Source: an uncultured bacterium (lineage in GTDB: Bacteria > Oederibacteriota > Oederibacteriia > Oederibacteriales > Oederibacteriaceae). Taken from it: 64,000 nt of DNA. Location: positions 1 to 64,000 of the forward strand of contig OZ218778.1 in the NCBI GenBank assembly GCA_965112635.1, given 5' to 3'. Position numbers and translations under genes: made by a program. The notes under the pieces are model-generated. The model was not told the origin of the DNA. It searched no databases and saw only the letters and a list, made by a program, of their open reading frames with translations. Below are positions 13,431 to 64,000 of this stretch, piece after piece. Positions within the stretch are counted from its first letter, which is position 1. The number at the start of each line of letters is the position of its first letter.

Positions 13431-13451
13431 TTTAAATAACCTCCCGTAAAT

Positions 13452-17967: not shown

Positions 17968-18783
17968 TCAGGCCACCCCTACTTTGATATAATCCCGCAG
18001 TCCCTTCCGGCAATCGTTTTTCAGCTGGGTGAACCTTAGGCCAAGCCTGTAAGCGTGATGGTATTTTTTTATCCAGGCTATCTTCCCGGAAGCGGCGAAC
18101 TCTTCCGCCTCATTGGGAAGCTTGAACTTGACGATAAATCCCGTTCCAACATCAAAGCTCTTAGAGCAGGCGATCTGCATTCCCCCCTCGGAAATATCCA
18201 CTATATGGGACTGCAGCATGAATTCCGGAACGCCGTCATGGACCATCTGGAGGTCCACGGCAAGAGGGGCCCTCGCAAACTTTCTTCCCTCTTTGGCCAG
18301 GACAGGGTCATAAGTCCCGTGCTTGGCCAGGTCGACCCTCGAAAAAAGGCCTTTGGCTCCCCGCAGGTCTTTGACGTCAGTTGGACCCGCCCCTTTCAAA
18401 CCTCCTGGCTCTTTGAGAGCATCAGGATGCCTCTTCAGCCAATTGATAGCTTTCCAAAATTTGAATTTCACGCCCAGGGGGATCTTTTCGAATTTAACTC
18501 CGTAGAAATTCGAAACCGTGTCTTTGCGTTCCTGAGCGATCAAACCGGGCATATACGGGAAAGGGGCGCCGTTAGGAAGGATAAAACTGAAAAAATAACT
18601 CTCGCCTATCTCTAAATTAAGGGAGGTATTCAGGCCTATACCCCCCAAAGAAATATCAGCGATAAAGGCGTTGCCCAAAGGTTCACCGCCGATAACTTTA
18701 AAAAGCTCTGTTTTGAGGAGAGTAGAGATCCGCAGATGTCTTCTTCGGGTATCTTTATAAGCCACGGACTTATTCCCCCTCAA
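17968..18783 (-). CDS. Tandem PilZ-domain protein (putative c-di-GMP effector)
   Basis: Two RxxxR...DxSxxG signatures: RRHLR..DISLGG and RKFAR..DISEGG. Confidence 0.88.
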   Translation of the reverse strand: MRGNKSVAYKDTRRRHLRISTLLKTELFKVIGGEPLGNAFIADISLGGIGLNTSLNLEIGESYFFSFILPNGAPFPYMPGLIAQERKDTVSNFYGVKFEKIPLGVKFKFWKAINWLKRHPDALKEPGGLKGAGPTDVKDLRGAKGLFSRVDLAKHGTYDPVLAKEGRKFARAPLAVDLQMVHDGVPEFMLQSHIVDISEGGMQIACSKSFDVGTGFIVKFKLPNEAEEFAASGKIAWIKKYHHAYRLGLRFTQLKNDCRKGLRDYIKVGVA

Positions 18784-18897
18784 TTTGATAGTACCAATTA
18801 TTTATGATATAAAATATATAGGGGTTTTTTATGATTTTTCAACTATTAAATAGACCTTTTTGTTTATTGCCTAAATCTAAGGTTAAGGAGCGGACCC

Positions 18898-20283
18898 TTG
18901 GGGCCCATCTGGAACTCATTAAAAATCAATATTTTTTGGGGATTTTTCATACTACTCCTTGCCCTGGTTCTGGGAACGGCCCCTGCCCTATATTCTCAAA
19001 CTAGCACTGCCACCGCGACCGCCACTTCAACGGCAACGGTCACTTTCACGCCAATAGGCAATCAGCTGGTCAACACAGATTTTGAAACGGACAGTTTAAT
19101 GCCGTGGACATTGATCGACATTGCTTCAGGACCATTACCAGTCATCACCACATCCTCCCATTCCGGCAGTTACGCGGCCAACATGGGCGACCTGCCTGGT
19201 CAGGACCCCTCGACCGGATCCTCTGGCATTTACCAAGACGTCATTATCCCGGTCACCAACTGCACAGCCAAGCTGACCTTTTGGTGGTATCCCTACACTG
19301 AGGACGTCGGATACGATTACCAGGAAGCCCTGATCATGGACACCAACAACAATATACTGGCCACGATATTCAGCACCGACAGCAATACCCAGGCATGGCA
19401 GCTGCAAACGTACGACCTAACTCCCTTCATCGGGCAGACCATCCGCATCTGTTTCAGGGTAAGGCATAACGGCAATGATCTGGCGACCTACATGAATATA
19501 GATGACATCGCCCTGACGTATGCCACGCCGACCAGGACTTACACCTACACCAAGACCTGCACCGGTACCCAAACATACTCCGTGACAGCCACCAGCACCA
19601 GCACCGCTACCAACACCAGGACCGGCTCCAACACGCCAACGCCAACAGGCTCTTCCACAGAAACCGGGACCCCCACCGCGACTCCCTCAGGCACAGGAAC
19701 GATAACCGCCACGGTAACCGGCTCTCCTTCTGCGACCGTCTCCGCTACGGCAACCGGCTCTCCTTCGGCGACCGCCTCCGCCACAGCTATCAACACCGAT
19801 ACTGACTCTCCCACCGCCTCCGCCACGTTTACGGTCACAGCTACTCCATCGGCCACCGCCTCCGCCACCGCCCTGCCCACGATGACCATGACTTCCACAA
19901 GCACCTGTACCGCCACAATTACCGGATCCACAACCAACTCGCCGACCTTGACCTCTACCATGACTCCAACACCCACGACAACGCCATATATCCCGGACGG
20001 CTCTTTTGGTCTTAACCATAACGTCTTCAACCCCTTAAAAACGGGTTTGGCCGTGTCCTATCACATCCCCAATCAAGCGCATGTCAGCATAACGGTCTAT
20101 TCGCTCGTGGGCACCAAAGTCAGGACCTTGCTGGACGCGGACAGACCCCCTGGCACCTGGAGCCTCCAGTGGGACGGCAGGAATGACCAGGCTGAAATGG
20201 TCGCCTCAGACATGTATCTGATCTTTTGCAGGCTGGGTAATTCTTCCTATCTGCGAAAAATAGCTGTTCTAAAGGAGAATTAA
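18898..20283 (+). CDS. Secreted protein: jelly-roll/CBM-like domain, Thr/Ser/Pro stalk and T9SS/FlgD-like CTD
   Basis: Signal peptide; LVN.DFE....PW..IDDI domain; (TPT/TAT)n linker; C-terminal HNVFNP..SY.IP..VSITVY..G.KVRTL...WDGRND.......Y...LRKIAVL. Confidence 0.8.
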   Translation: MGPIWNSLKINIFWGFFILLLALVLGTAPALYSQTSTATATATSTATVTFTPIGNQLVNTDFETDSLMPWTLIDIASGPLPVITTSSHSGSYAANMGDLPGQDPSTGSSGIYQDVIIPVTNCTAKLTFWWYPYTEDVGYDYQEALIMDTNNNILATIFSTDSNTQAWQLQTYDLTPFIGQTIRICFRVRHNGNDLATYMNIDDIALTYATPTRTYTYTKTCTGTQTYSVTATSTSTATNTRTGSNTPTPTGSSTETGTPTATPSGTGTITATVTGSPSATVSATATGSPSATASATAINTDTDSPTASATFTVTATPSATASATALPTMTMTSTSTCTATITGSTTNSPTLTSTMTPTPTTTPYIPDGSFGLNHNVFNPLKTGLAVSYHIPNQAHVSITVYSLVGTKVRTLLDADRPPGTWSLQWDGRNDQAEMVASDMYLIFCRLGNSSYLRKIAVLKEN

Positions 20284-20299
20284 CATCAAAAGGCTGTTA

Positions 20300-21643
20300 T
20301 TGGCGCTTTTCGCCTTTGAGTCTTTTTTGTCCCTGGCCTGGGCCGGCGGCCCAGGAACCACGGGCAGCCAATTTTTGCTGATACCCCAGGGTTCCCGGGC
20401 AGCTGCCATGGGGAGTTCTTTTGAAGCTGTGTCTGACGACGCCTCGGGGGTTTTTTGGAACACGGCGGGACTCGGCGATCTTTCTTTCCCTGAGCTCTCT
20501 TTCACGCACCTCAACTGGCTGGCGGATTCGGCCTACGAGTCCCTGTCCTATGTCCAGCCAGTGCCGGACCTGGGGGTTTTGGGTGCCGGGTTTTCTCTGT
20601 TCCACATCCCCCAATACGACAACACCGCGGGCGCGGACCAGCCTTTCTCCACCTACAGCTACCAAGGCCTGCTGTCTTACAACCGTGCTCTCCAAAACCC
20701 TCTGATACCGGAACTCTTCGGAGGCCTGGCGCTCAAATATATCTCCACTGTTTTCGGGGATCTGGCCCAGCTCAACAACCTGGCCATAGACCTGCACTTC
20801 TATCACGTTTCCGCTTGGAAACCCCTGCATTTGGGTCTGTCGCTGCAAAACCTCGGGATTAGTTCCAACGCCCTGGATCCTCTGCCCTTCACCACCCGTT
20901 TTGGCCTGGCCCTGTATTTCGACAACCTGTTGTTCTCTGCTGAAGGCGACCAAGTCACCGGCCAGAATGCCCAGTACCACGCCGGCGCGGAATACTGGAT
21001 CCAAAATATATTGGGCCTCAGGGGAGGCTACGAGACCGAGGACGCCACGGGTTCTTTTTCGGGGTTTGCCTTTGGCGTGGGGACGCGGTTCGCTTTTTAT
21101 CAGATGGATTACTCAGTGGCCAGCCTGGGCGACCTCGGCTACGTCCAAAGGGGCTCCCTGCAGGTCTCTTTTGCTTCTGCTCCTGGGCAAACCGAAACCT
21201 TCCGCCCGGTCCAGCCGACTTTCACGCCGACCCGTCGTCCCACACCGCTTCCTCCGACCGCCACGCCTACCCCGGAGCAGTCCCAGGAACCGGCCGGGAC
21301 CCCGACACCGGTGCACACCAGGACCCTCCATCATGCCAAGGCGCCGGCCGAACCGGTCCTGTTCCCGCCCCAAACCATCAATGCTTCCGTGGACGGGATG
21401 ACCATCACGCTGACGTGGGAGGCTCCGGCGGTTAAACAAGAACCCATTTTCGGTTACGACGTCTATTTCAGTATGAGCCCCTCCGGGCCGTTCAGGAAGT
21501 TGACTTTTGACCCCGTGATCAGGTCACCCTGGTCGACGACGATGGGCACGAGAGGAATGACTTACTATTTCGCGATCAAAACGGTCGGGGCTAACGGGGA
21601 CGCCAGTGAACTATCCGAGGTGCAGCCTGTCCTTATCCCCTAG
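20300..21643 (+). CDS. PorV/PorQ-like outer-membrane beta-barrel with Pro/Thr linker and C-terminal FN3 domain
   Basis: FLLIPQGSRAAAMG.SF.AVSDDASGVFWNTAGL, alternating beta strands, GAEYW....LGLRGGY, MDYS...LG; FN3 ITLTWEAP..GY.VY..YYFAIK. Confidence 0.8.
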   Translation: MALFAFESFLSLAWAGGPGTTGSQFLLIPQGSRAAAMGSSFEAVSDDASGVFWNTAGLGDLSFPELSFTHLNWLADSAYESLSYVQPVPDLGVLGAGFSLFHIPQYDNTAGADQPFSTYSYQGLLSYNRALQNPLIPELFGGLALKYISTVFGDLAQLNNLAIDLHFYHVSAWKPLHLGLSLQNLGISSNALDPLPFTTRFGLALYFDNLLFSAEGDQVTGQNAQYHAGAEYWIQNILGLRGGYETEDATGSFSGFAFGVGTRFAFYQMDYSVASLGDLGYVQRGSLQVSFASAPGQTETFRPVQPTFTPTRRPTPLPPTATPTPEQSQEPAGTPTPVHTRTLHHAKAPAEPVLFPPQTINASVDGMTITLTWEAPAVKQEPIFGYDVYFSMSPSGPFRKLTFDPVIRSPWSTTMGTRGMTYYFAIKTVGANGDASELSEVQPVLIP

Positions 21644-21686
21644 CTGGGGTCAGTGACCGGGAAAGCCTTCCAGGCGGGCCGGGAAC

Positions 21687-24161: not shown

Positions 24162-24210
24162 CCCGTTTTCTCCTTCCCTACCGTTTTGAATGTGTTTTCG
24201 TTCCCTGCCC

Positions 24211-24858
24211 CTAGCCCTGCTGGGGTTGGTGTTTTTTCCCGCCCGTTTGCTTGGTTCCCATCCGGGTCAGGATAATCTCCACCCGCCGGTTTAGGGCCCG
24301 ATTAATCTCCGTGTCGTTGGGAGCGATAGGCCGGTATTCCCCATACCCGCTGGCCGCGACCCGCTTGGGGTCCAGTTTTTCCTGCTCGATAAAATACCTG
24401 GCCACATTGGAAGCCCGGGCCGTGGAAAGTTCCCAGTTGGAAGGGTACCGTTCCGTTTTGACGGGAAGATTGTCCGTATGCCCTTCGATATGGATGTCAT
24501 TGGGGGCGGATTTCAAAAACGGTCCTAGCACCACGAATATCTTCTTGGCTTCCGGTTTGAGGTCGGCCTGGCCGCGGTCGAACAGCACCTTCTCCTTGAA
24601 ATAAAGGACCAGCCCCTTGTCATTGATCTTGGTCGTGCAAGCTTCCGTCGCGTTGGCGGACCTCAGGATCCCGTCAACATCCCGCTGCAACTTCTTGAGC
24701 TGTGATTCGTTCAACGCGGAGGAAAGAGAATACAACATGACAAAAAAGACCACCATCTGGGTCATCATATCCGCGTAATTGACGAACCACGGCGGAGCCG
24801 GATTGCCGATCTCCAGCTGTGGCCCCCCGCCGACTTCGCGATTAAACTTTAGTGGCAC
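24211..24858 (-). CDS. motB: Flagellar-type stator MotB (OmpA-like peptidoglycan-binding domain)
   Basis: WFVNYADMMT..VVFFVML with the conserved Asp; LFDRGQA.L, IEGHTDN.P, SNWELSTARA..V, GYGEYRP, NRRVEI; probable GTG start at 24858. Confidence 0.92.
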   Translation of the reverse strand: MPLKFNREVGGGPQLEIGNPAPPWFVNYADMMTQMVVFFVMLYSLSSALNESQLKKLQRDVDGILRSANATEACTTKINDKGLVLYFKEKVLFDRGQADLKPEAKKIFVVLGPFLKSAPNDIHIEGHTDNLPVKTERYPSNWELSTARASNVARYFIEQEKLDPKRVAASGYGEYRPIAPNDTEINRALNRRVEIILTRMGTKQTGGKKHQPQQG

Positions 24859-25648: not shown

Positions 25649-25714
25649 AAAATGTTTCCTCTCCCTCCCTTAAATGAATTCCGCCAAAATCGTTGTTCCC
25701 CTGTTGTCCTTTGG

Positions 25715-29358: not shown

Positions 29359-32300
29359 TTAGTGTAATACCGCTATCTTGCGCAAAACTTGAGTAGTACC
29401 CTGGGAATTATGCACCACAATACGGCAGATATACCCGCCTCTGGCAACGCTCTGGGAGATATCATTGGTCCCATCCCAAAGGACATTATTGGCTCCCGCC
29501 TGACCGCCTGATTGTCCGGCTTTGATCACAAAGGTCTTCACCAGGTGGCCGGTCAAGTCGAACAGGGTGATGGTGACATCCGAATCCTGGTTGAGCAGAT
29601 AGGTAATGGTCGTCGGTCCCAGCCTGGAATCGAACGGATTGGGGTAGTTGGACACCAGGGAAACCGGCTGATTGAGATTACCCGTCAGGACCGCTGCGGA
29701 AACCGGCGACCACGGGCCCCAGCTGCCTGCGTTGTTCAAGGCCATGACCCTGTAATAAAAGGCGTGTCCTGCTGGCTTGCCTGTGACCTTATACTGAGCC
29801 GTATCGCCCGGAATGGTGGTGCTCAGGGTGGTCCACACCGGCGAAGTGTCCATCCTCTCCTGGATGGCATAGGCCCCTATTCCTGATTCCGCATCCAGGG
29901 CCGGGTTCCAGCTCACGATATAGGACGTGTTGAACTGGCCCGAAAGGGACAGGGATGAGGTCGGGGATCCTGGCGTAGAGGGCGGCGTGAGGTCCACGGA
30001 GATCGCCGCGTAACCGACGCTGCTCAGGACATTGAGCAGGCTCTTGGTCTTGACGTTGAAATAGTAGGTGTGGTTGTGCGCCAGCAAGAGCCCCTGGGCC
30101 GAGGCGCTTTGATTAGTTCCCGAGTCCTGCCAGTTCTGGAGGTCCTGGGCCGTGGGCGAGGTCCCCACCGAGTAATAGTTATCGCTGATGCCCACCGAAG
30201 AAGTGCTGATCCAGCTGGCCGCCAGCGCGTTGGGGTTGTTGGTCCACACCGGCGCATTGACCTGCGGAGTGGAAGGCGTGGACATGTCCAATATGGTGAT
30301 CGTGTTGGTCGTGGCTGGGAATCCCGCCGTGTTGACCGACCCCGGAACAATGGTCAAGAAGCTCGTGTTGGCGATCTGGAACCCGAAGGTCTGGTTGTCC
30401 GGCGCCGCGGTCGGGTCTGACGATACCGTGCCCATCAGGAAATAGGTCTGGGCCGTGGTGCTGATGGCCTGCGGGGTCAGGGGTATCTGGGCCACCCCGT
30501 TGTTAAAGTTGGCGCTGGGGTTGGTGACCGAACCGATCATGGGATCGTTGACATTGTAGACCCCGGTCCCGTTGATGTCTTTATACACGCCCAGGCTCAG
30601 GACCGCGTCGTTGGGCTTGATGGGAGCCGTCCCGATGCGGGTGACTTCGAGGTTGCTCCAGGTCGCGGTATGGGTGTTGGTGGCTACGTTGAACTTGAAC
30701 AAGGGCACGCCGGTCTGGCCCTGGTTGGCCCCTTGCGGGGAGATATTGATCGCCGTAAAGCTGACATTGATGGCCTGGATCGTGGACAACTGCGGCGAAT
30801 TCCAGGGGAACTGGCTCGTGGCCGGTATCTGGTTCCCTGCCGGCGTGAAATGGAACACGTTGTTGGCCGAGAACTGAAGCCCCACCGTGTCCGTGGCCGT
30901 GGCCGTCAGGCTGATATCGTAGACGACGAAATAGACCTTGGGCGACGTGGTGATGACCTGGGCGGTCTGCGTCAGGGACAGGAGGCATACCCCGTTGGTA
31001 AAGGTGCCCGTGGTCACCAGCGTGTCCTTGTCCGCCTCAAAGACAGTGTCGTAATTGCTGTCCTGGTATAGCGAAACCCGCGCAATATCCGTGTCCAGGC
31101 TGGAGCCGTAGCGGTTGATGTCCAGCTCCGTGAAGTTGGCTGTGGACACGTTGGTGGTCAGAGCCAGAGTGGCCATGGACACGTTCGTGTCGCCCTGGAA
31201 CACGCTGACAGGCGCCGTGGAGGTCACGGACAGCGAAATAGCGTTGGTGAACGGCGTAATGGTGGACGCGCTGCTGCCGAACCCGAAGTGGGCTACAGCG
31301 ACCGTGTTGGTCACGCCCTGGGGCGCGTCCATGCCAAAGTAGGTGTTGGCCGTCAGGGTCAACCCGACCTGGTCGCCGACATAAGCGTTGGGGCTGATGT
31401 CAAAAGTGATGTAGTAGTTCTGTCCGGCCGCGGTATTGGTGATATTTTCACCGGCGGGGTTCATCATGCTCAAGATTGTGGTCTGGTTGTTGAACAAAGC
31501 GCTGTAACTCACCTGGTCCACGGGTATCAGCGAACCGTTGGCGTTGATGTAGCTGACGCCGCTGCTGTCAGCGCGCCACAACTTGATGCCCTGGACATCG
31601 GCATCCGTGTTGTGGCCCATGGAGTTGGGCGTGCCGGTCCGGTCCACCTGCAAGGTCATGAGATTGGAGGTGAAGGGCGTCGAAGCCATATTGAATTCGA
31701 TCATGGCGATACCGGTCACGCTTTGGGCCATCGTGATAGGCGCCTGAGAACTGCCCAGGACCGTGCATACATTGGCCACCGGCACGATGGTCAGGGTATT
31801 GGACACGATGGCGCCGCCCGGCAGCTGCACGCTGTGGGGCGACAGCACCGTGAAATAGCTGAAGTCAAAATCGGACAATTGGATGGTGCCGCCTGTGGCC
31901 GTGGGCGCGATATCCACCACCACGAAATAATCCGTGGGCGTGGAGTAGACGATCTGGCCCGTCACGGTCGTGGAAGTGGGGGCGCTGATATCGCCGCTCC
32001 ACATTTGCAGCATCGCGATGCCTCCCGAGAACGTTCCCTTGGCCACGACCGGGTCCACAGCCGATCTGAAGATATGGTCGCCTTGGATCTCTTTATAGAT
32101 CCGGATCTGCTGGATGGCGCTGTCATAGGCGCTTCCTATCTGGTTTATCTGGGTCTTCATCCACGGCACGAAATAAGCGTCCGAATTGACCGTGAACTTC
32201 TCAATGAGGACATTGGTGGAGCCCTGGCTCACGGTGCCCGTGGGCGTCAGGCTCGTGCCGTTGACCGTCATGATCCTGGGCTTGGGCGAGATCGTGATAA

Positions 32301-50300: not shown

Positions 50301-53300
50301 TCGGGCTGGCATAGCTCCAGTAGCTCCAGCTGGCCGTCGTGGTGCAGTTGAGCCAGGTCTGGGTGGTGACGCCCGGCCAGCTGCCGTTGTAGTAAGAGCC
50401 GGTCCCCACGTTCTTGATGGACACCTGGACCTGGGCGACCCCGACATTGTCATTGGCCGTGCCGGTGATGTAACCGAGACTGTTTATGCGCAGCCCGTCC
50501 GTGGGCATGGAAATGACGGAATGGGGCGGGTCGGTATCATAGGTGAAATACACGCCCGAGGTGGGGCTTTCGGTGTTGCTGGCGGAGTCCGTGGCCATGG
50601 ACTGGATGTAATAGGTATGCCCGCTGGTAAAGCCCGTGGGCATGGCGTAGGTCCAGTTGTTGGTCCCGCTGGAAACGGGGTTCCACAGCGGCCCCGGTGC
50701 CCAGCCGCCGCCGGTCCAATAGGAGTTACCGTAATAGGTGTCTTTGATGGCCACCTGGACCCCGGCGATACCGGCCAGGGCTGAGGTCGCCGTCCCTGAA
50801 ATATTGGTCAAATAGTTCAAAATAGCGTTATTTCCGGGCACTGTGACCGCGGAAGTGGGAGGCGTGGTCACGAAAGTAAAGGATGTCCCGATGCCGGGGA
50901 CTTCCTGATTGCTCGCCAGGTCCGTGGCCTTGGTCTGGATGATATAGACCCGTCCGTTGATCCAGGCCGGCGAATTAAAGGTCCAGTAGGAGGTCCCGGA
51001 CACCTGGATCCATTGCTGGGTGGAGTTCCAGGCCGTATAGGTATTGCCCTGGTAGTAAACCCCGCCGTCCGTGGCGTTCTTGATGGAAATGTAAACCTTG
51101 TCCAGACCGGCCGGTCCGTTGGCCAGGGCTGAACCGGAGATCACGGTCAGGGAGTTGGTATCCTGGCCCTGGTAAGGCACGGTGACGGATGAAGAAGGCA
51201 GCGCGTTGTCAAAGATGAAGGAAACTCCGGCTCCCGGGGTCTCCTGTCCAAAGTTGACGTCTATCGCCTTGGACTGGAGGGCATAGCTCTTGCCGGTCAT
51301 GAACCAGGTCTGGTTGATGCCTCCGGTATAGGTCCAGGAAGTTGACCCCACCGCGTTGACCCAGAAAGGCGAAGCGTAAGCGGTCCAGGTCGTGCCGTTC
51401 CAGTAGGTCGAATCCGTGGAATTCCTGATCAAAAGCTGGACGCCGGTCGTTAACGGAGAGGCGGAACCGGAAATGACCGGGATGTTGTTGTAATAGGTCT
51501 TGCTGTTGTCAGGGAAGCCGATGGTCGAGGTCGGCGCCGCCGTGACGGTCAGGATGCTGTAGGAAGTAGAGAGACCGTAGTCGTTGCCGTTCACGACGGT
51601 CATATTATAAGGTCCGATAGGCACCGCCCCGCTGATGCTGATGTCCACATTGATGGAGGTATTGCTCCAGTTGGTAGGCACCGCCACGATACCGCCGTTA
51701 TTGAATACGACATGGCCGGTACTGGAACCGAAGTAGTTCCCGGTGATAACGGCTGTCACGCTGACCGCGCCCTGGCCGATAATACCCTGCGACAGGGTGA
51801 TGACAGGCTTGGGATCGATCGTCAGCGCGCCCGGCAGAGTATAGGTGCCATAGTCGGGGTTGAACAAGGTCAGGGTCCGCGCGGTCGTGGTATCCGCCGT
51901 CGCGTCCACGTTGACCGTGACCGTGGCTGAAGTGCCGTTGTTATAGGTTAAAGCGGTCTGGGTAATGCCGTTGTAACCGACCGTTGCCGTGAAAGTGACC
52001 CCGAACCCGGCGCCGTTCGTGAAATTGGTGCCGGTGATCACGATGTCTTGGCTGGAAGCGCCCTGCCCCAGGGCCACAGGGAGGATGCTGGTGATGGTCG
52101 GCCGGCCGTTGACCGTAAAGGCGATAATGGAGGAACCGTTGCCCGCGCCGTCCGTATCCGAAGCCGTTACGGTGATCATCACCGGCCCGGTCGGTGCCGT
52201 GGCCAGGATATCGATGGGAACAGCGATGGAACCGCTGTTCCAGCTGGTGGGCGCGTGGACGACGATGCCGCTGTTGGCGAACTGGACCGTGCCCGTATTG
52301 GCGCCAAAATTGGAGCCGGAGAGGGTGATGGTGCGGCCCGTAGCACCCTGGCCCAGGCTGCTGGGCGCGGCCGAGGTGATGGAAGGCTTGGCTAAAATGT
52401 TGAATTTATTGGCAAAAGTAGCCTGGCCGGCGTCAGAACCCTTGATGATGGTGATATCGCCCAGGCCCTGGGGCGTGGACCCCGCGATGTTGACGGTCAG
52501 GATGATGGAAGAAGTGTTCCAGTTGTAGTTGGTGACGCTGATGCCCGAGGCACTGAAGCTGACCGTGCCGGTGATGCCGTCAAAATTGTTGCCCAGGATG
52601 GTCAGGGTCTGGTTCAAGGCGCCCTGGCCGCGGGTGTTGGGAGTGATGCTGGTGAAGGTCGGCGCCGCTCCCACGATAAAGAACCCGTTGCTGGAGGTCG
52701 CGTTGCCCGCGTTGTCGTTGTTGGCGATGGACACGGTCGCGGGCCCGGCGGAAGCGCCGGACAGGTCCAGGGTGGCCGTGATGGAGGTATTGCTCCAGTA
52801 ACCCACGCTGCTCACCAGAACTCCGTTGCTGAAGGTCAAAGTGCCGTTGGACACGCCGAAATTGTTGCCGCTGAGGACCACGGTCTGGCCCGTGGACCCG
52901 TAACCGCGGGTGTTCGGCGTGATGGAACTGAAGCTGGGAGCCGGGTTGACCGTAAATTGATTGCTGAAGGTCGTGCGGCCCTGGTCGCTGCCGTTGACGA
53001 CCGTGATGTTGCACAACCCCGTGGTGGCGTTCGAGGCCACGTTGACCAGGAGCACGATCTGGCCGGAGTTCCAGCTGCTGTAACCGGTCACGCTCACTCC
53101 GCTGGCGCTGAAGCTGACCGAGCCCTGGGTGTTCCCGAAGTTGGTGCCCAGCAGGGTGATGGTCTGGGCCGAGGCGCCCTGGCCGCGGTTAGCTGGGTTC
53201 ACGTTGGTCAAGGTCGGCTGTCCATTGACGGTAAAGAAGCCCAGGCCCGAGGTGCCCACGCCGTTGTTGTCCCCGTTGGTGATCGTGACCGTGGCCGCTC

Positions 53301-56300
53301 CGGAAGTGGCCAGCGTGCAGTCCAGGGAGACCAGGACCGAGCTGGTGGACCAGCCCTTGACCGTGGCCAGGACCCCGTTGCTGAACGATACGGAACCGGC
53401 GCTGCCGAAATTGTTCCCGGTGATGGTCACATAGGTGCCGGACGCTCCCACCCCCAGGTTGGTCGGAGAGATGGCGGAGAAGCTGGGTTTGGGATCGACC
53501 GTGAACGCGCCGTTGAAGGTGGCCTGGCCGGCGTCATCCCCGTTGACCACGGTGAAGCTTCCGGCCCCGGTCGCGGAGTTGGAGGACAGGTTCATGTTAA
53601 GGTTGATCTGGGTGTTGCTCCAGTTGTTGTAACTGGTCACAACCACCCCGCTGGCGCCAAAGGTCACGGTCCCCTGGCTGTTGCCGAAGTTGTTGCCGGT
53701 GATGGCGATGATCTGGCCCGTCGCTCCCTGCCCGCGGTCAGCGGGATTGATGTTACCCAGCGTGAAGGTAGGCGCCGGATTGACGGTGAAGATGCCCACG
53801 GTGGACCAGACGCCGGCGTTGTCGCCGTTGGTCACCGTGATGGTCACATTGCCCGCCGTGGCGGCGGCCAGGTTGAGATTGAGGGAGATGGACCCGTTGG
53901 CCCAGCTGTTGATGCTGGAGCCGACCCCGTTGGTCAGGGTGATGGTCCCCGTCGCGTTGCCGAAATTACCCCCGCTGATAATGACGGTTTGGTTGGTCGC
54001 CCCGATACCGCGGCTGGGCGGATTGGCGCTGGTAAAGCTGGGGTGGCTGTCCACCGTGAACACGCTGGTAAAGGTGGTCTGTCCGGCATTGGCCCCGTTG
54101 ATGACCGTGATATTGCCTGCCCCGGGCGTGGCCCCGCTGCTGATATTGGCCGTCAGGACGATCTGAGCATCCGCCCAGCTGGTGTAACCTGTGACGTTGA
54201 TGCCCGGATTGCTGAAGGTCACCGTACCCTGGGTCGTGCTGAAATTGCTCCCGTTGATCGTGAGGGTCTGCCCCAGTGCCCCCTGGCCGCGGTCGCTCGG
54301 GGTCATATTGGTAAAGGTCGGCGCTCCGTTGACCGTGAAGAACCCGGCCACCGAGGTCGCCTGGCCCGCGTTGTCGTTGTTGATAATGGTCACCTGTGGC
54401 CGCGCCGGCCGTGGCCGAGGCCAAATTCAGGGTGACCGTGACCGAGGTGTCGCTCCAGCTGTTGACCGAGGACACCACGACTCCGTTGCTGAAGTTAATG
54501 GTCCCTTGCGTGGTCCCGAAGTTGCTCCCGCCGATGATCACCTGCTGGCCCGTGGAACCGATACCGCGGCTGGGCGGAGCGCAGGTAATAAAGCTGGGTT
54601 TGGGATCGACCGTGAACTTATTGGTGAACAAGGTTTGGCCCGCGTCAGAGCCATTGACCACCGTGATATTTCCCAAACCGGTCGCTGCCGAGGACCCGAT
54701 AGTGGCGGTCAAAACGATCTGGGTCATCCCCCAGTTGCTGTAACCGGTGACCGAAACGCCGCTGGCGCTGAAGGTCACGCTCCCCTGGCTGTTCCCGAAA
54801 TTATTGCCGTTGATGGTGATGGTCTGGCTGGACGCTCCCTGTCCGCGGTCAGACGGGTTGACACTGGTGAAGCTCGGCGCCGGGTTGACCGTGAAAATGC
54901 CCGCCGTGGACCACAGGCCGGCGTTGTCGCCGTTGGTCACCGTGATGGTCACGTTGCCGGCCGTCGCGTTGGACAGGTCCATGGAGACCGTGATGGAGGT
55001 GTCCGACCAGCTGCTGATATTGGAGACGATGCCGTTGGTCACGGTGATGGAACCCGTCGCGTTGCCGAAATGGCTGCCGCTGATGACCACGCTCTGGTTG
55101 GTCGCCCCGATACCGCGGCTGGATGGATTGGCGCTGGTAAAGCTTGGTTTGGGATCCACCGTGAACTTATTGGGGAACAGGGACTGGCCTGAGTCGGCTC
55201 CGTTGATGACCGTGAGGTTGCCCAGTCCCAGAGTGGCGGTGTTGAGGATGTTGGCCTTGAGCACGATCTGCGTGTCGGACCAGCTGGTATAGCTGGTCAC
55301 CGAGACGTTGGCCGCCCCGAAGATCACGGTCCCCTGGGTGTTGCTGTACCCGCTGCCGGTGATGGTGATGGTCTGGTTCAGCGCCCCTTGGCCGCGGTCG
55401 CTCGGGTTCATGCTGGTGAAGGCCGGCGGCCCGTCCACGGTAAAGAACCCGGCGTAGGAAGTGGCCCGGCCCTGGTCGTCGTTATTGATGATGGTCACGG
55501 TAGACGCGCCGGCGGTCGCGTTGGTCAGGTCCAGGGTGACGCTGACGGAATTGGCGGACCAGTTATTGACCGCTGAGACCACGACCCCGTTGCTGAAATT
55601 GATGGTCCCTTGCGTGGTCCCAAAATTACTGCCGCCGATGACCACGGTCTGCCCTGAGGAGCCGATTCCAAGGTTCCCTGGAGCGCAGGACACAAAACTC
55701 GGTTTAGGATTGACCGTAAAGACATTGGCAAAGGTGGCGATACCGTTGTCAGTTCCGTTGGTGACCGTGATACTGCCCAGGCCGGTGTTCGCGGAAGAAC
55801 CGAAGTTAGCCATCAGGACGATCTGGTTGTTGTTCCAGCTGCTGTAGCCGGACACCGACACCCCGCTGGCGCCGAAGACCACGGTTCCCTGGGTGTTGCC
55901 GAAATTGTTGCCGTTGAGGGTGATGGTCTGGTTCGGCGCTCCCTGCCCGCGATTGGTCGGATTGACGCTGCTAAAGATGGGCGCTCCGTTGACCGTGAAG
56001 AACCCGCTGGCCGAAGTGGCCTGGCCGGCGTCATCCCCGTTGGTGACCGTCACGGTCGCCGCGCCTGGCGTGGCTCCGGTCAGGTCCAGGGTCACGGTGA
56101 TGGCGCCGGTCCCCCAGCTGTTGACGTTGGAGACCACGACGCCGTTGCTGAAGCTGATACTGCCGTTGGCCACGCCGAAATTGCCGCCGTTGATCGTCAC
56201 CTGCTGGCCCGAGGAGCCGTAACCGCGGCTGCTGGGCAAGGCTGAGGTGAAGGTCGGCTTGGCGTTGACCGTGAATTTATTGGCAAAGGTGCTTTGGCCG

Positions 56301-59300
56301 GAGTCGGAACCGTTGATGACCGTGATGCTGCCCAGCCCCTGGGTGGCGGTTTGGGCGATATTGACGGTCAGCACGATCTGGGTGCTGTTCCAGCTGCTGT
56401 ACCCGGTCACGCTGATGCCGCTGGCGCCGAAGATGACCGCGCCCTGATTGGTCCCGAAATTGCCGCCGTTGATGGTGATGGTCCGGTTTTGCGCCCCTTG
56501 CCCATAGTTATTAGGGTTCATGCTGGTAAAGGTCGGAGCAGGGTCAATGTTAAAGAACCCTAAGGACGAGGTATTTCGTCCCGCGTCATCGTTATTGACG
56601 ATTGAAATAGTGGCCTGTCCGGTCGTGGCTGCCGTGCAGTCCACCAGGACCAGGATCGAAGAATCGGTCCTTTGGGCGATCGTGTTGGACACCCCGTTGC
56701 TGAAGGTAATCGTGCAGGTGTTGGTGACCCCGAAATACGAACCTGTGATGGTGACGCTCTGGGCCGTGCAGCCGATACCTTTGGCCGACGGAGAGCAGGT
56801 TATGAACAAAGGCTTGGGATCGACCATGAACTGGTTGACCAGGACCGCCTGGCCCGCGTCGTCGCCTTTGATGATGGTGACGTTATTGGCGCCCTGCGTG
56901 GCGTTGGGGTCGATATTGACGGTAATGACCACCGAGCCGTTGCCCCAGCTGGTGTAGCCCGTGACGCTGATACCGGCCGAGGCGAACACCACCTGGCCCT
57001 GGGTGTTGCCAAAGTTGATACCGGACAGGGTAATGGTCTGGTTTTGCGCCCCCTGGCCTCGGTTGGCCGGGCTGATACCGGAAAGGGTAGGCGCGCCGTT
57101 GACCGTGAAGAACCCTAGGCCGGAGGTGATCTGGCCGGCGTTGGCGCCGTTGATCACGGTGATAGAGGCTGGCCCGGCCGTAGCTCCGGAAAGGTTGAGC
57201 ACCGCGGTGATAGAGTTGTCCGCCCAGCTGGTGATGGAGGAAACCATCACTCCGTTGCTGAAGGACAGGCTTCCCTGGGTGTTGCTGAAATTACTGCCCG
57301 TGATGACCACGGTCTGGTTGACCGCGCCTACGCCGCGGTTATTGGGGGACACACTGATGAAGCTCGGTCCATTGTTGACCGTAAAGACACTGCTGACTGT
57401 GGTGCGGCCAAAATCCGCTCCATTGACGATGGTGATGTCGGAAGTGCCTACCGTGGCGCTCGTGGTCAGGTTGGCGGTCAGGACGATCTGGTCATTGTTC
57501 CAGCTGTTGTATCCGGTCACGCTGACCCCGGTGTTGGCAAAGATGACCTGGCCCTGATAAATGCCGAAATTATTGCCGTTGAGGGTGATGGTCTGGTTTT
57601 GAGCTCCCTGGCCCCGGTTGGCCGGGTTCATCCCGGAATAGGAAGGAGGCAGGTTGATCGTGAAGAATCCGGGAGCCGAGGTCACCACGCTGGCGTCGTC
57701 GGAGTTATACAAGGTCACGGTAGCCGGACCGGTCAGGGCCGCCGCGCAGTTAAGGGTGGCCAGGACATAGGTATTGATCCAGGTATCGATCACGCTGCTG
57801 ATATTGTTGCTGAAGGTCAAAGTACTGAGGTGATCGCTGTCGCTTCCAAAGGGAATACCCGTGATGGTCACGCTCTGGCCCATGGCACCCTGGCCCAGGC
57901 TGGCGGGAAAGGCGCTCGTCAGGGTCGGTTTGGCGTTGACCGTGAACACGTTGACAAAAGTGGACTGGCTGGCATCCGTGGGGTTGACCACCGTGACATT
58001 ACCCGCGCCCAGGGCCGCGTTCTGGGCCACATTGACGATCATATCGATCTCGGTGCTGCCCCAGCTGGTATAGCTGGTCACGCTGATGCCATTGGCGCTG
58101 AAACTCACGGTCCCCTGGTTATTGCCGAAATTGTTGCCGATGAGCCGCATCAGCTGGTTGGTAATACCCTGGCCGCGGCTAGAGGGCGAGAGGCTGGTGA
58201 AAGTGGGCGGCGGGTTCAAGGTAAAGAAGCCCAGGGCTGAGGTTACGGCGCCGCCGTTGTCGCCGCTGGTCACGGTGACCGTGGCCTGGCCGGCCGTGGC
58301 TGAGGAGCTGTCCAGGGTCAATTGGATCTGGGCCGGACTCCAGCTGGTGATGGACGAGACGACCGCGCCGTTGCTGAAGGCCACCTGGCCCGTGGAAGTG
58401 CCGAAATCGCTCCCCTGGATGGTGATGGCCTGCCCGGTCGAACCCACACCGCGGCTGGCTGGGTTGATGGAGCTGAGGGTCGGCGCGGGGTCCACGGTAA
58501 ACACGCCGCTAAAGGTCGCGCGGCTCGCGTCCGAACTGTCGTAAATGGTGATGCTCCCCAGCCCCAGAGTGGCCGTGGAATTAAGGTTGGCCACAAGCTG
58601 GATCTGGTTGTTGCCCCAAGCCGGATAGCTGGTGATGCTGATGCCGCTGGCTCCAAAGGTGACGGTCCCGACATTGGTGCCGAAATTGGAACCGTTGATG
58701 GTGATGAGCTGGCCCACGCCTCCCTGGCCGCGGTCGCTCGGGTTCACGCTGGTGAAGGTCGGCGCCGGGTCCACCGTAAAGAACCCGCTGGCCGAGGTGT
58801 TTTGGCCGCCGTCGTCGAAATTGTGCACCGTGACCGTGGCCGGACCGGCTGTGGCGCTGGAGCAGTCCATCGTGACATTGATGGAGGTGTTGGTCCAGCT
58901 GCTGACCACGGCCACGATGCCGTTGGAGAAGCTGACCGTGCCGGTGCCATTGCCAAAATTGGAGCCGGTGATGGTCACGCTCTGGGCCGTGGCCCCGACG
59001 CCGCGGTCAGCCGGATAGATGCTGATAAAGGTCGGTTTGCCGTCCACCGTAAAGACTCCGGTGAACCTGGCTTTGCCCTGGTTGTCGTTATTGAGCACCG
59101 TGATGTCGCCCGCACCCAGGGTCGCGTTGGAAGCGATATTGATGACCATGCTGATCTGCGTGTTGCCCCACGAGGAGTAGCTGGTCACGCTGACGCCGCT
59201 GGCGCTGAAGGTCACGGTCCCGATGCTGCTGCCGAAGTTGTTTCCGGTCATGATGATGGTCTGGTTGCTGGTCCCCTGTCCGCGGGCGTTGTAGTTCAAA

Positions 59301-62300
59301 TTATTGAAGGTCGGGGCCGGATCGACCGTAAAGATGCCGGAAGAGGTTGCCCGGCCGGCATTGTCGTTATTGACGACCGTGACCGTGGCCGTGCCGATTA
59401 CGGCGCTGGTCAGGTCGAGGTTCAGGGAGATGGAGTTCATGCCCCAGCTGTTGACGCCGGTGACATTGATGCCGTTGCTCATCGAGACGGTCCCGTTGGT
59501 CAGACCGAAATAGTTTCCGCTCAAGACCACGGTCTGGTTGTTGTTCCCTGCCCCGCGGTCAGGCGGGTTGGTCCCCGTAAAGGACGGGGCCGCGTCAACC
59601 GTAAAAACATTGGAAAAGGTGGTCTTGGCGCCGTCAGACCCTCTGGTCAGGGTGAGGCTGCTCAGACCCTGGGTCGCGTTGCCTGCGATTGTGACCATGA
59701 AGATGATCTGGGTGTCGCTCCAGCTGCTGTAACCCGTGACGCTCACTCCGGCGGCGCTAAAGGCGATGGTGCCCTGGGTGCCCCCGAAACTGGCACCCTT
59801 TAAGGTCAGGGTCTGGGCAATGGCTCCCTGACCCAGGTCACCTGGCTGCAGGCTCGTGAAGGTCGGCAAACCGTTGACCGTGAAGAATCCGCTCGCTGAG
59901 GTCGCCTGGCCTTGGTTGTCGTTGTTGACGATGGACACCGTGGCCGGCCCTACCGTGGCGCCGGTGCAATCCACGATCGTCAGGATCTGGGTATTGCTCC
60001 AGGTGGCGATGACATTATTGATGCCGTTGCTGAAAGTCACCGAGCCTGTCGAAGTGCCGAAGTTATTGCCCGTAATGGTCACGCTCTGGGCCGTGGCTCC
60101 GAGACCGCGGCTGCTGGGCACGCAGGTGTTGAAGGTCGGGGCTGGATCCACGGTAAAGGCGCCGGAGTCCGTGGCCTGGCCCATATCAGAACCTTTGACC
60201 ACTGCGATATCCCCTGCCCCCGGCGTGGCTCCGCTGGCAATATTGACCTTTAAGATGATGGCGGTGTTGCCCCAGCCGGTATAGCTCGTGACGCTGATGC
60301 CCAGTGCGCTGAAGGTCACGGTCCCCTGGATGGTCCCGAAATTATTGCCGTTGATAGTGACCGTCTGGTTGGCGGCGCCCTGGCCGAGGTTGTTGGGCGA
60401 AATGACCCCAAAGGTAGGGGCTGGGTTCACGGTAAAGAATCCGCTGGCCGAAGTGGCCTGTCCTTTATCGTCATTGTTCAAAATGGTGACCGTGGCCGGC
60501 CCGGCGGTCGCGCTGGCGCAGTTCAGGGAAACCGTGATGGAACCGCTGGCCCAGCTGACCACATTGGAGACCACGATGCCGTTGCTGAAGTTGATGGTGC
60601 CCTGCGTGTTGCCGAAATTATTGCCGGCGATGACCACGGTCTGCCCGGTGGCTCCCTGGCCGCGGCTGGAGGGCGTCGTGGAGGTGAAGCTCGGGGCGGA
60701 ATTGACCGTGAACACGTTGTTAAAGGTCGCTTTGCCTCCGTCCACCAGGTTCTGTACCGCGACATTGCACTGGCCCTGGGGGGTGGAGGAGCTGATATTG
60801 ACCGTCATCACGACCTGGGTGGCGCTCCAGCTGGTATAGCCGGTCACGCTGATGCCTGTGGCGCTGAAGGTCACGATGCCCTGTGACCCGCCGAAATAGT
60901 TGCCGCTCAAGGTAATGGTCTGGTTGGTGGCGCCCTGCCCGCGGCTGGTCGGGTTGATGCTGCTGAAACTCGGCGGCGCGTTGATGGTAAAGAGGTTGGT
61001 CCCGGAAGTGGCCACGCCGGCATCGTTGCCGTTGGTGACCATCACCGTGGCGGCACCGCCTGTGGCTGAGGAGCAGTCCAGGGTCACCAGGATGGAGCCG
61101 TTGCTCCAGCTGTTGATGGCGGTCACATTGATGGTGTTGCTGAAAGACACCGAGCCTGTCAAGGTGCCGAAATTGTTGCCTGTGACGGTCACGTACTCGC
61201 CCGTGGCCCCGGCGCCCAGACTGCTGGGGCTGACCGCGATAAAGCTGGGTTTGGAATCGACCGTGAAATCACCCGTAAAGGTGGATACGCCGGCATCGTC
61301 GCCGTTGACCACCACGATATTGCAGGCCCCCGCCGCCGCGGAGCTCCCGACGTTCACCACGAGCTGGACTTGGTTGTTGCTCCAGTTGGAATAGCTGGTC
61401 ACGCTGACCCCGGTGGCGCTGAAGGTGACCGAACCCTGGCTGTTGCCGAAATGGTTGCCGTTGAGGGTGAGGGTCTGGTTTTGGGCTCCCTGCCCGCGTG
61501 TCGCGGGGTTGATGCTGGTAAAGGAAGGCGGGGCGTTCACAATGAACAGGCCGCTGGCCGAGGTGGCCGTGCCCTTGTCGTCGTTGTTCAGGACCGTGAC
61601 GGTGGCATTGCCGACCGTGGCGCTGGAACAGTCGATATTGACCGTGATGGAGCCGCTGCCCCAGCTCGCAATGGAATTGACTAAGATACCGTTGTTGAAA
61701 GTGACGGTCCCGTTGGTCAGGCCGAAATTCGCGCCTGCGATGGTCACGTTCTGGTTGGTGGCGCCCTGGCCTCGGCTATTAGGCGTCGTGGAGGTAAAGC
61801 TGGGTTTGGCGTTGACCGTGAAAGCCCCGTTGTCGGTCCCCTGGCCGCCGTCCGTGCCGTTGACGACCGTCACGTTGCAGGCCCCCAGGGTCGCCGTGGC
61901 GGCCACGTTGAGGGTGACCTGGATAGAGGTATTGGTCCAGGTGCCGTAACTGACCACGCTGACGCCGGTAGCGCTGAAGGTCACGGTGCCTTGGGTAGTG
62001 CCGAAGTTATTGCCCGTGATGGTCACGCTCTGGGCCTGAGCACCCTGGCCGCGGCTGGCCGGGCTGATGCCGGTAAAGCTGGGCGCGCTGTTGACCGCGA
62101 ATAGGCTGTTCGAAGAGGTCGCCACGCCTTTATCGGTGTTGTTGGTGACCGTGGCCGTGGCCCCGCCCGTCGTGGCGTTGGTCAGGTCCAGGATCACGTT
62201 GATAGCGCTATTGCTCCAGCTGTTGATGGAGGTCACGTTGATGCTGTTGCTGAAAGAAATGGAGCCCTGGGTGGCGCCGAAGTTATTGCCGGTGATGGTC

Positions 62301-64000
62301 ACGCTCTGGCCCGTAGCTCCCTGGCCGCTGCTGCTCGGCGTGGCGGCAATAAAGCTGGGCTTGGGGTTCACAGTAAAATCGTTGTTAAAGGTGGCCACGC
62401 CCGCGTTATCGCCGTTGACCACGATGAGCGGGCACGACCCCGTGGCCGCGTTGGTGCCAAAGGAGACCGTCATCACCACTTGGCTGTTGTTCCAGCTGGC
62501 GTAGCCGGTCACGCTCACGCCCGTGGCGTTAAAGGTGACGGTGCCCTGGTTGGTGCCGAAATTCCCGCCGACCAGGGTCAGAGTCTGGCTGGTAGCGCCC
62601 TGGCCGCGGCTGGTGGGATTGATGCTGGTAAAGGTCGGGGCGGGATTGACCGTGAAGAAGCCGCTGGCCGAAGTGGTCTGGCCGCCGTTGTCGCCGTTGA
62701 CCACCGTGACCGTGGCCGCCCCGCTGGTGGCCGAGCTGCAGTCCAGAACGACCGTGATGGCCGTCGAGCTCCAGCTAGTGATCGAAGAGACCATGACCCC
62801 GTTGCTGAAGGTGATCGTGCCCGTGCTGTTGCCAAAATTGCCGCCGTTGACCGTCACGGTCTGGCCGGTGGAACCCTGGCCGCGGCTGCTGGGGTTGGTA
62901 TTGGTGAAAGTTGGCGCGCCGTTGACCGTAAAGACCCCGGCGAAGGTCGCCTGGCCCTGGTTGCTGGAGTTGTAGATTGTGATACTGCCGGCCCCGCTGG
63001 TGGCGTTGCTGGCCACGTTGATGGTCAGGGTAATGCCTGTGTTGTTCCAGCTGGTATAGCCGGTCACGCTGATGCCGCTCGCCCCAAAGGTCACGACCCC
63101 CTGGGTGTTGCCGAAATTGTTGCCGGCGATGGAAATGCTCTTGTTATTGGTCCCCTGTCCGGCGTAGTTCGGGGTGGCGCTGGTGAAGGTCGGGGCCGGG
63201 TTGACCGTAAAGAAACCGGCGGCTGAGGTGTTGACGCCGGCATCGTCGTTGTTGGATACCTGGACCGTGGCCGCTCCGGCCGTGGCGCTGGTCAGGTCCA
63301 GCTTGACCAGGATGGCGGTATTGGACCAGGTCTGGACCGAGGTCAATCCGATATTGTTGCTGAAGGAGATAGTCCCATTCGTCGTCCCAAAGTTACTTCC
63401 CGTGATGGTCACATACTGGCCCGAGCATCCCGCGCCCAGACTGGCCGGCTGGGCCAGGGTGAAGCTGGGTTTGGGATTGACCTGTAAAGTCGTTGCTGAA
63501 GGTGGCCTGGCCCGCATCCTGTCCGTTGACGACCTGGATGGAGGTTAGGCCCAGGGCCGCCGTGGAGGCCAGCGACACGGTCACCTTGATCTCCCCGTTG
63601 CTCCACAGGGAGTAACCGCCCACGTTGATACCGGGATTGGTGAAGGAAACACTGCCGCTGCCCTGAGTGGCCCCGAAATTATTCCCAAGCAGGTCCAGGG
63701 TCTGGTTGGTCGCGCCCTGGCCGCGGCTGGACGGCAAAATACTGGTGAACGAAGGCGCCGCGTTGACGGTAAAAAGACCGCTGACCGAAGTGGCCTGGCC
63801 GGCATTGTCTCCGTTGACCACGGTCACGGTCGCCGGCCCGGCTGTGGCGCTGGTCAGGTTCAAATTGACCGTGATGGCGCTGTTGCTCCAGTTGGTGATG
63901 GAGGAGACCACGATCCCGTTGCTGAAAAAGACCGCGCCCTGGCTGTTCCCAAAATTGTTCCCGTCGATGATCACGGACTGTCCCGAGGAACCGATACCGC
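29359..64000 (-). CDS. Giant repetitive Ig/IPT surface protein with T9SS/FlgD-like CTD; >11,500 aa, 5'-truncated by the window, two frameshifts
   Basis: ORFs 29359-54393, 53966-63517 and 63393-63974 continue the same repeat register across single extra bases at about 54395 and 63483. C-terminus NYPNPF..TITYLL..DVTITLFDLTGHLVKT..WDGTND....V.RG.Y...LRKIAVLH. Confidence 0.88.
30290..34380 (-). repeat. Eight longer beta-sandwich repeats followed by two FN3-like domains
   Basis: V.QG..N(V/T)..(M/L/F)....W..L.V...G...D.DI..(I/V).(L/V/I)(Y/W).D motif seen eight times; FN3-like YYFNVK and YYRVMALN.AG..GPWS downstream. Confidence 0.7.
36860..48890 (-). repeat. About 34 LPGE-type ~117-aa repeats
   Basis: KLQ(L/V)L(L/A)PGE...PG...GKTG.P...TAG..F.(V/I)TVNAVD..WN, counted 34 times by eye. 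Confidence 0.85.
49200..51545 (-). repeat. Seven Trp-rich bacterial Ig-like repeats (~111 aa)
   Basis: PP.S.(I/V)..P...(I/L).G(T/S)A...V...IK....Y(W/Y).G..W...W....G...W.Y.....W..G..Y.I.SKA.D.A.N.E. Confidence 0.75.
51545..64000 (-). repeat. About 44 IPT/TIG-like ~93-aa repeats in an alternating A/B pattern
   Basis: Recurring P.FTS..P..RG.G...Q.(V/L)T(I/L).G.NFG...G.V.F...W....I...N.D..G......FTV; count estimated from length. Confidence 0.85.

Follow-up and report, generated by a model that had tools for sequence, protein, structure and literature searches.

An uncultured bacterium of the Oederibacteriota (GenBank assembly GCA_965112635.1, contig OZ218778.1) encodes, within the first 64,000 nt of its contig, the stretch referred to here as the window, a flagellar-type rotor and stator beside a giant secreted repeat protein and an outer-membrane barrel. 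The source genome is a single contig of 2.88 Mb and is 96.9% complete. Proteins of the window were scanned against Pfam and NCBIfam, and transmembrane (TM) segments were taken from hydropathy. Six co-directional genes on the minus strand encode, in this order, a giant open reading frame (ORF), a PorV-family barrel with a C-terminal TPR region (PorV-TPR, 515 aa), a fusion of FliF-type and FliG domains (581 aa), MotA (268 aa), MotB (232 aa) and an 824-aa protein with TM and coiled-coil-type sequence. From the giant ORF to the 824-aa gene, the intergenic gaps are 246, 105 and 66 nt, an overlap between the two stator genes, and 49 nt. A plus-strand cassette at 18898..21643, in which a protein with a C-terminal domain (CTD) of T9SS type is followed by a second barrel, converges on this run. 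Gene order and orientation are those given in the original prediction, which was made from the sequence alone, and its claim that the window holds no fliM/N, export-gate, rod, hook or gld genes was borne out by the Pfam and NCBIfam scans. The rotor and stator genes are extra copies, separate from the motor of the flagellum that the same genome encodes, and they may drive a giant surface fiber.

The fusion protein begins with a signal or TM segment (residues 5–32), followed by a periplasmic RBM3-like domain (~33–185), a second TM segment (182–214), the M and C domains of FliG (264–477) and a charged tail. Residues 264–477 align to the solved T. maritima FliG 1lkv (E 2e-36), and the N-terminal 240 aa, scanned alone, match YscJ_FliF_C (PF08345) at 31.4 bits against a cut-off of 23.8. 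A profile built from alignment A2, which comprises 19 N-terminal parts of the fusion family, matches the RBM3 chains of FliF in 9yh6 (E 1.8e-4), Vibrio 8z5s and Salmonella 6scn, as well as the genome's own flagellar FliF (E 1e-17); SpoIIIAG is matched at E 0.12, and PF08345 itself matches 12 of the 19 members of A2. PF01514, the family of RBM1/2, matches only the flagellar FliF at 2063657 in a search of the genome and is not found in the fusion. Because the N-terminal part matches RBM3 and PF08345 while PF01514 matches only the flagellar FliF, the fusion is a miniature FliF, made of RBM3 only, with a membrane helix linking it to FliG M and C. The predicted FliF/FliG fusion is thus retained for its FliG M/C and FliF-type parts, the latter narrowed to a single RBM3-like domain. 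FliG_N gives a weak match over the M/C region and none at the expected N-terminal position, and the TIGR00207 score of 147.9 does not reach the cut-off of 226.7.

Within the FliG part, the window fusion has ERPD in place of the FliM-binding EHPQ motif, a stretch that varies across alignment A1. MFVFEDI of the solved FliG corresponds to LFTVEDI, and the torque helix SKRAAALLKDELE to SEGAKALLQEAID. For 114 family representatives that have a FliG part, we read the torque-helix positions on columns presumed to correspond to R281, D288 and D289 in E. coli numbering. The R281 position is Gly in 79 of the 114 representatives, the D288 position is Glu in 66 and Gln in 39, and the D289 position is Glu in 72. 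With Gly at the R281 position in 79 and Glu at the two acidic positions in 66 and 72, the acidic pair of the torque helix is largely kept, and the Arg lost, across the fusion family.

Flagellar MotA and PomA are the best solved relatives of the window MotA (Clostridium sporogenes MotA 6ysf, E 4e-55). The solved MotA contains the stretch RKARREGLLSLE, whose R and E are presumed to be R90 and E98 of E. coli MotA; the window protein has an R and an E at the columns aligned with these two. Among 30 module MotA sequences, not all of them independent since some contigs belong to both of the locus sets described below, 29 have K, R or H in the R column, and 20 have E and 9 have Q in the E column. In the available excerpts of PMC12505986, from which the cited E. 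coli FliG and MotA residue numbering comes, R90 and E98 are the partners of FliG D288/D289 and R281. The window MotB has a TM aspartate (YADM), a plug and an OmpA-type peptidoglycan-binding domain, all aligned with those of the genome's two other MotB proteins, and the charged torque-interface residues of MotA together with these three features of MotB are what marks a flagellar-type stator. Because the equivalog cut-offs of NCBIfam are not reached (MotP 249 against 394; MotS 170.7 against 264), the module stator belongs to a separate subfamily of flagellar-type stators. The motB ORF overlaps motA by 68 nt, so the true start of MotB probably lies downstream of 24909.

The PorV-TPR protein comprises a barrel (residues ~30–300) and a TPR tail (~303–515) that is presumed to be periplasmic, and it is 32–41% identical to the other 14 sequences of alignment A3. 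Both barrels of the window pass PorV_fam, the model of the PorV/PorQ subfamily (Table 1), and with 32.6 and 36.7 bits fall short of the cut-off of 250 set for PorV proper (T9SS_OM_PorV, NF033710). The barrel and the rotor are linked across genomes. Seen from the fusion side, 17 of 21 loci have PorV-TPR as the gene directly upstream; of the other four, two start inside the gene and two have an AAA_22 ATPase in its place. From the barrel side, in a set of 79 loci with full-length PorV-TPR orthologues, the fusion follows directly in 70 (70 of the 74 assessable loci, as five contigs end too early). A CTD-ending ORF directly precedes PorV-TPR in 60 of the 79, with none in 15 and no room in 4, and 50 of these 60 ORFs are at least 1,000 aa long or run off the locus. 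The arrangement recurs in the genome itself at a second locus, at 1.81 Mb, with the order fusion, MotA, MotB, a 496-aa protein, a TPR protein, a PorV-like barrel and a 3,740-aa protein; here the fusion matches PF08345 over its full length (E 3e-11). The synteny of motor genes with PorV and CTD genes, which the original prediction had proposed to check across genomes, is therefore conserved.

In a whole-library search, the N-terminal profile matched 482 representatives at E ≤ 1e-10, of which 47 reached E ≤ 1e-30. Among the best 150 of the 482, both the RBM3-like and the FliG M/C parts are present in 108 of the 113 proteins of at least 440 aa. Homologues of the fusion occur in metagenome-assembled genomes (MAGs) labeled Elusimicrobiota, Endomicrobiia and Firestonebacteria, and strong matches were found in 4 of 99 genomes of the window's own phylum. 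MAG relatives of Elusimicrobiaceae and of Endomicrobiia are among the carriers of the module. Most homologues have an extra C-terminal TPR after FliG_C, and most of 18 other carrier genomes have two to three fusion paralogues; in these carriers, 13 additional MotA paralogues each have another fusion gene less than 500 nt away, and three more have one within 3 kb. Between the fusion and MotA, relatives encode one or two large proteins without TM segments, 49–68% of whose residues are E/K/Q/R/L and many of which have Pro-rich N-termini. FlbD precedes the module MotA in all three relatives tested, and none was found at the window locus or at the genome's second motor locus. The second FlbD copy of the genome (1531712–1531885, 80.9 bits) is an orphan, distant from both motor loci as well as from the flagellar cluster. 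The AAA_22 (ExeA-like) ATPase genes that precede a fusion gene lie at L007:3958–4758 and L012:9112–9945, and L007, from a same-phylum relative, carries two fusion genes in tandem.

The last gene of the run encodes the 824-aa protein, with hydrophobic segments at residues 7–32 (signal-like) and 160–192 and a content of 49% E/K/Q/R/L over residues 201–824. Its presumed topology is a periplasmic TPR-like region of ~130 aa, a TM segment and ~630 aa of cytoplasmic coiled-coil-type sequence. Pfam detected no TPR in it, and the sole phmmer match, TPR-like and at E 6e-4, is with the TPR tail in the fusion protein of one relative; the gene had been described as TPR-TM-coiled-coil, and its TM and coiled-coil-type parts hold while its TPR part is left with this weak match. 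phmmer found no homology to the coiled-coil proteins of the relatives, and only the composition of the cytoplasmic part is comparable.

At the other end of the run, the predicted giant CTD protein is present with its CTD and is not confined to the window, extending to genome position 80156. In the assembly it is divided into ORFs with overlapping ends at 63393–80156 (5,587 aa, with a signal-like N-terminus that lies outside the window), 53966–63517 (3,183 aa) and 29359–54393 (8,344 aa, with the CTD). The last of these has TIG domains and a weak FlgD_ig C-terminus, and the C-terminus matches TIGR04183 at 29383–29646 (25.3 bits, cut-off 23) and a CTD profile built from the genome (2.8e-16). Because the same TIG-like repeat runs on across both junctions after a +1 shift, we read the three ORFs as one gene, which would encode ~16,900 residues if read through. 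The shifts fall near 54395 and 63485, both at the heptamer ACAGGTS, and four in-frame ACA-GGT-T sites within the gene read normally. Contigs of two public metagenome runs from different studies (X1 and X4) match 54212–54512 and 54261–54422 and lack one letter at 54395, with no other difference, so the frameshift there is probably an assembly error or a strain variant. Together with this missing letter, the ACAGGTS context shared by both shifts points to a systematic assembly or base-calling error rather than a pseudogene; no run contig covers the junction near 63485.

The genome has a full flagellar cluster at 2.05–2.09 Mb, which holds FlgB/C/E/F/G/A/H/I/K, FliE, FliF, FliG, FliH/I/J, FlbD, MotA and MotB as well as FliL/M/Y, FliO-R and FlhB/A/F. 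The original prediction had allowed that a complete flagellum elsewhere, lacking fliF, fliG and motAB of its own, would make the window genes simply its motor. Because the cluster carries its own FliF, FliG, MotA and MotB, the rotor and stator genes of the window are extra copies and not the motor of the flagellum. Consistent with this, the window MotA is 40% identical to the genome's flagellar MotA against 56–64% to its orthologues in other phyla, and such orthologues were found in all 18 other fusion-carrying genomes. FlhA was found in one of these 18 and not in the other 17, which are MAGs whose completeness is not given, and the module thus occurs independently of flagella. A flagellum-type FliF with RBM1–RBM2, a FliM-binding EHPQR and a FliG_N for the FliF tail are features that the fusion does not have.

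Both barrel genes of the window belong to a larger set of cassettes. With a profile iterated within the genome, we found 77 ORFs with a CTD at the very C-terminus and 37 PorV-like ORFs, of which 24 have a CTD gene directly upstream, both window pairs included. Further examples lie at 168976–170924, 326750–330750, 1241153–1245195 and 2468901–2476320. This looks like a phylum-wide display system in which each cargo comes with its own barrel. A third giant-protein locus (2629475–2659808) encodes a 6,061-aa ORF, a 580-aa PorV-TPR-like barrel, a 1,988-aa CTD protein and a 767-aa OmpA-type protein, with no fusion or MotA gene nearby. For the plus-strand cassette at 18898..21643, no specific link to the motor was found, and the FN3 tail that had been assigned to its barrel was not detected by Pfam at E ≤ 0.01. 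The 461-aa CTD protein of this cassette has long alternating-Thr runs (T-x-T-x), and sugar-modifying genes lie at 10078–17920 (DegT aminotransferase, GFO/IDH/MocA oxidoreductases, PIG-L deacetylase, ROK); these enzymes might glycosylate Thr-rich CTD proteins. The remainder of the window holds, besides such enzymes, housekeeping genes and transposases, with IS110-family and IS200-like transposase genes at 184–2210, the extreme start of the contig.

Table 1 Genes of the motor run and its neighbors in the window, with the evidence for each assignment
Feature	Coordinates	Strand	Evidence
Giant secreted repeat protein	29359..64000, on to genome position 80156	(-)	TIG-like repeats, T9SS type-A-like CTD
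PorV/PorQ-family barrel with C-terminal TPR, 515 aa	27566..29113	(-)	PorV_fam 116.5 bits (cut-off 90), TPR families
FliF(RBM3)-TM-FliG(M,C) fusion, 581 aa	25715..27460	(-)	FliG_M 58 bits, FliG_C 91 bits
MotA, 268 aa	24842..25648	(-)	MotA_ExbB; best NCBIfam models MotP/PomA/MotA
MotB, 232 aa	24211..24909	(-)	MotB_plug 42 bits, OmpA 75.5 bits
TM/coiled-coil-type protein, 824 aa	21687..24161	(-)	Two hydrophobic segments; no Pfam/NCBIfam family
PorV-family barrel, 447 aa	20300..21643	(+)	PorV_fam 119.4 bits (cut-off 90)
Thr-rich CTD protein, 461 aa	18898..20283	(+)	Weak FlgD_ig C-terminus, E 0.003; match to genome-built CTD profile
Double-PilZ protein	17968..18783	(-)	Two PilZ stretches, E 1.9e-23

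We favor, by a slight balance of probability, the reading that the operon is a stand-alone, flagellum-derived rotary motor that moves, tensions or deploys a giant surface fiber through the PorV-TPR barrel. The rotor would be a single chain, with an RBM3-like ring domain in the periplasm, a membrane helix, and the FliG M/C torque domains in the cytoplasm, and the MotA/MotB stator of the module would be anchored to peptidoglycan. Ion flow through MotAB would turn or push the ring of fusion protein, and cytoplasmic coiled-coil proteins would probably stand in for the FliM/FliN ring. Through the periplasm, the motion of the ring would reach the TPR tail on the dedicated PorV-family barrel, which would hold the C-terminal domain of a surface fiber of ~17,000 residues. 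The motor could then move, tension or deploy this fiber much as GldLM drives SprF–SprB in gliding Bacteroidota.

Several observations weigh against such a motor. A TPR domain of ~200 aa and one RBM domain may not reach across the periplasm and peptidoglycan. In the 79 of 114 family members noted above, Gly stands where the solved T. maritima FliG has the Arg of its 'SKR' motif, and the window fusion retains only one of the two acidic residues of the torque helix (E-A). MotAB lies within the 6–10 kb of fetched flanks in only 6 of the 21 fusion-side and 26 of the 79 barrel-side loci. The two same-phylum relatives with the AAA_22 ATPase in place of PorV-TPR upstream of the fusion, both labeled Firestonebacteria, break the gene order on which the reading leans, as do the 4 of 74 assessable PorV-TPR loci that have no fusion within 6 kb. 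Finally, the giant gene carries two frameshifts as assembled, and absence in other sequence data is available for one of them only.

An alternative is that the motor takes over from GldLM as the energizer of secretion and either pushes the giant CTD protein through the outer membrane or sets it free. In the Bacteroidota, this would be the task of the T9SS (type IX secretion system), and the original prediction had leaned toward such a role. The genome has 34 matches to the type-A CTD model TIGR04183 at E ≤ 1e-3, 29 of them above the cut-off and the giant included; the motor's linked partners are a PorV-family barrel and a giant gene that encodes a CTD protein. The whole-genome check for GldK/L/M/N and SprA that had been suggested gave no match to TIGR03513, TIGR03517, TIGR03523 or TIGR03525, in a search in which three of the four models matched no control genome and the GldK model matched three, all of them below its cut-off. 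SprA_N reached 21.2 bits against a cut-off of 27, in a search in which no control genome matched. The 1,846-aa ORF that gave this sub-threshold score belongs to no Pfam family and was rejected as SprA. Because controls failed to match or matched below the cut-off, the absence of Gld proteins and SprA from the genome is likely but not proven, which also takes weight from the secretion reading.

The distribution of the genes speaks more directly against a role in secretion. PorV_fam is present in multiple copies in all 99 genomes of the phylum, as against 4 of 99 for the fusion motor; therefore, CTD/PorV export works without the motor, and the CTD/PorV cassettes are independent of it. Within the source genome, 24 CTD–PorV cassettes (among 37 PorV-like and 77 CTD ORFs) stand against two motor loci, and the operon contains no candidate for a translocon. 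We thus regard a motor for secretion as unlikely and a general replacement of GldLM as unsupported; the motor is a specialized addition to one type of barrel, that with the TPR tail, and to giant cargo. Of the chimeric flagellar-motor/T9SS-like system first proposed, the extra rotor–stator copies and their conserved linkage remain, while neither control by cyclic di-GMP nor the general replacement of GldLM finds support. The PilZ gene of the window is parted from the motor operon by two opposite-strand genes, and PilZ was discarded as a conserved partner of the module, with no match near it in the 21 and 79 related loci or at the genome's second motor locus. No riboswitch was found at the Rfam gathering score in the window, in 64001–84000 or upstream of the second locus, where only a tRNA scored.

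The fusion could instead have a cytoplasmic or structural output, its ring serving along with the TPR tail and giant coiled-coil partners as a membrane scaffold, polar organizer or mechanosensor, with MotAB as an anchor or sensor and the barrel as an envelope tether. The C-terminal TPR that follows FliG_C in most relatives, the one or two large, TM-less, E/K/Q/R/L-rich proteins encoded after it, the diverged FliM-binding EHPQ motif and the absence of the barrel beside the fusion in same-phylum relatives all fit this alternative. However, MotA orthologues of 56–64% identity in 18 of 18 carriers and the charges kept at the torque interface argue for working torque generation, and the tight linkage to PorV-TPR and giant CTD genes in most loci is at odds with a purely cytoplasmic role, which leaves a scaffold or sensor improbable. 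That the genes are auxiliary or alternative rotor–stator paralogues serving the ordinary flagellum, like MotCD or MotPS, agrees with a flagellated genome and a flagellar-type MotA with solved MotA/PomA as its best matches, but is nearly excluded because FlhA is missing from 17 of the 18 other carriers, and it sits poorly with a fusion that has no RBM1/2, no FliG_N at the expected position and a diverged FliM-binding motif, among neighbors that are PorV/CTD genes and not flagellar genes.

Compared with the flagellar motor core, the module has homologous parts throughout: an RBM3-like FliF domain, FliG M and C, MotA, and MotB with its plug, Asp and OmpA domain, along with FlbD before MotA in the three relatives tested. 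It differs in having its rotor parts in one chain without RBM1/2, in its diverged EHPQ motif and lost torque-helix Arg, and in the lack of FlbD at the window locus. Moreover, 17 of 18 carriers have no export gate (FlhA), rod, hook or filament, and the neighbors of the module are an outer-membrane barrel, a giant CTD protein and coiled-coil proteins. SiiA and SiiB are likewise MotAB-like. The published systems that follow are given as the available excerpts of the cited papers describe them. SiiAB are auxiliary proteins of the Salmonella SPI-4 system, which secretes the giant adhesin SiiE (10.1101/641415); compared by description rather than by sequence, they differ from the module in working with type 1 secretion and without a FliG or FliF partner.

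On those excerpts, the nearest published item is the FliF–FliG fusion of the Chlamydiaceae (Bergeron 2016, PMC4768692), a protein of ~330 aa with an RBM2-like and a second RBM-like part and a FliG M-like region only, which is discussed there in relation to the injectisome. Like the module fusion, it is a natural single chain with two TM segments, its periplasmic part is shortened, and it occurs in bacteria that lack flagella; by description, not by sequence comparison, the module differs in its RBM3-like domain, its FliG M and C and its dedicated MotAB. In gliding Bacteroidota, a periplasmic track driven by GldLM propels the adhesin-holding barrels of the outer membrane (PMC12635249), and the outline is the same as that proposed here, with an inner-membrane ion motor, a barrel to which a giant adhesin is held by its CTD, and outer-membrane proteins moved laterally through a periplasmic link (PMC12635249, PMC8986121). 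Type-A-like CTDs and PorV-family barrels are further common ground between the T9SS and the module genome. In contrast, the module motor consists of MotAB and a putative FliG ring, as predicted, instead of GldLM, in a genome with no Gld match and no SprA above threshold; its barrel is PorV-like with a TPR tail instead of PorP/SprF with a Cys tail, and its CTD is type-A-like, not type B. The pairing of a CTD cargo gene with its own adjoining FadL-like barrel, found here for 24 of 37 PorV-like ORFs, also occurs in PorP-like/type-B CTD pairs, PorV–PorU and PorQ–PorZ (PMC9143113, PMC5562754), from which the present cassettes differ in lying outside the Bacteroidota and in combining a PorV/PorQ-family barrel with a type-A-like CTD. 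A PorU sortase did not turn up here, although no search aimed at one was made. Tested against the defining features of the flagellum and of the T9SS, the module fits neither system, and a literature search, with supplements outside its scope, found no paper describing a FliF–FliG/MotAB module with PorV-like barrels.

To our knowledge, the FliG/MotAB rotor–stator pair has been described solely as what drives the flagellum. FliG occurs once in the available excerpts of PMC12505986, as the flagellar rotor. The fusion family comprises at least 108 protein clusters at 50% identity, mostly in bacteria without an export-gate gene, and the module shows genetic linkage to an outer-membrane barrel and to proteins that rank among the largest in bacteria. 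More tentatively than for the motor itself, we consider it possible, if doubtful, that this is a third kind of ion-driven machine for surface motility or adhesin handling, in which a FliF–FliG ring turned by MotAB drives a barrel and its ~17,000-residue fiber along or around the cell. If so, Elusimicrobiota without flagella and their relatives would gain gliding or active adhesion. Should the ring rotate, a classic motor would have a new output; the module would then also offer a candidate mechanism by which little-studied phyla move or adhere, and a natural test of which flagellar-motor parts can work alone. Because the module has the torque core alone and no machinery for type III export, it may reveal what a flagellar motor is capable of in the absence of a flagellum, and may thereby bear on the origin of the flagellum.

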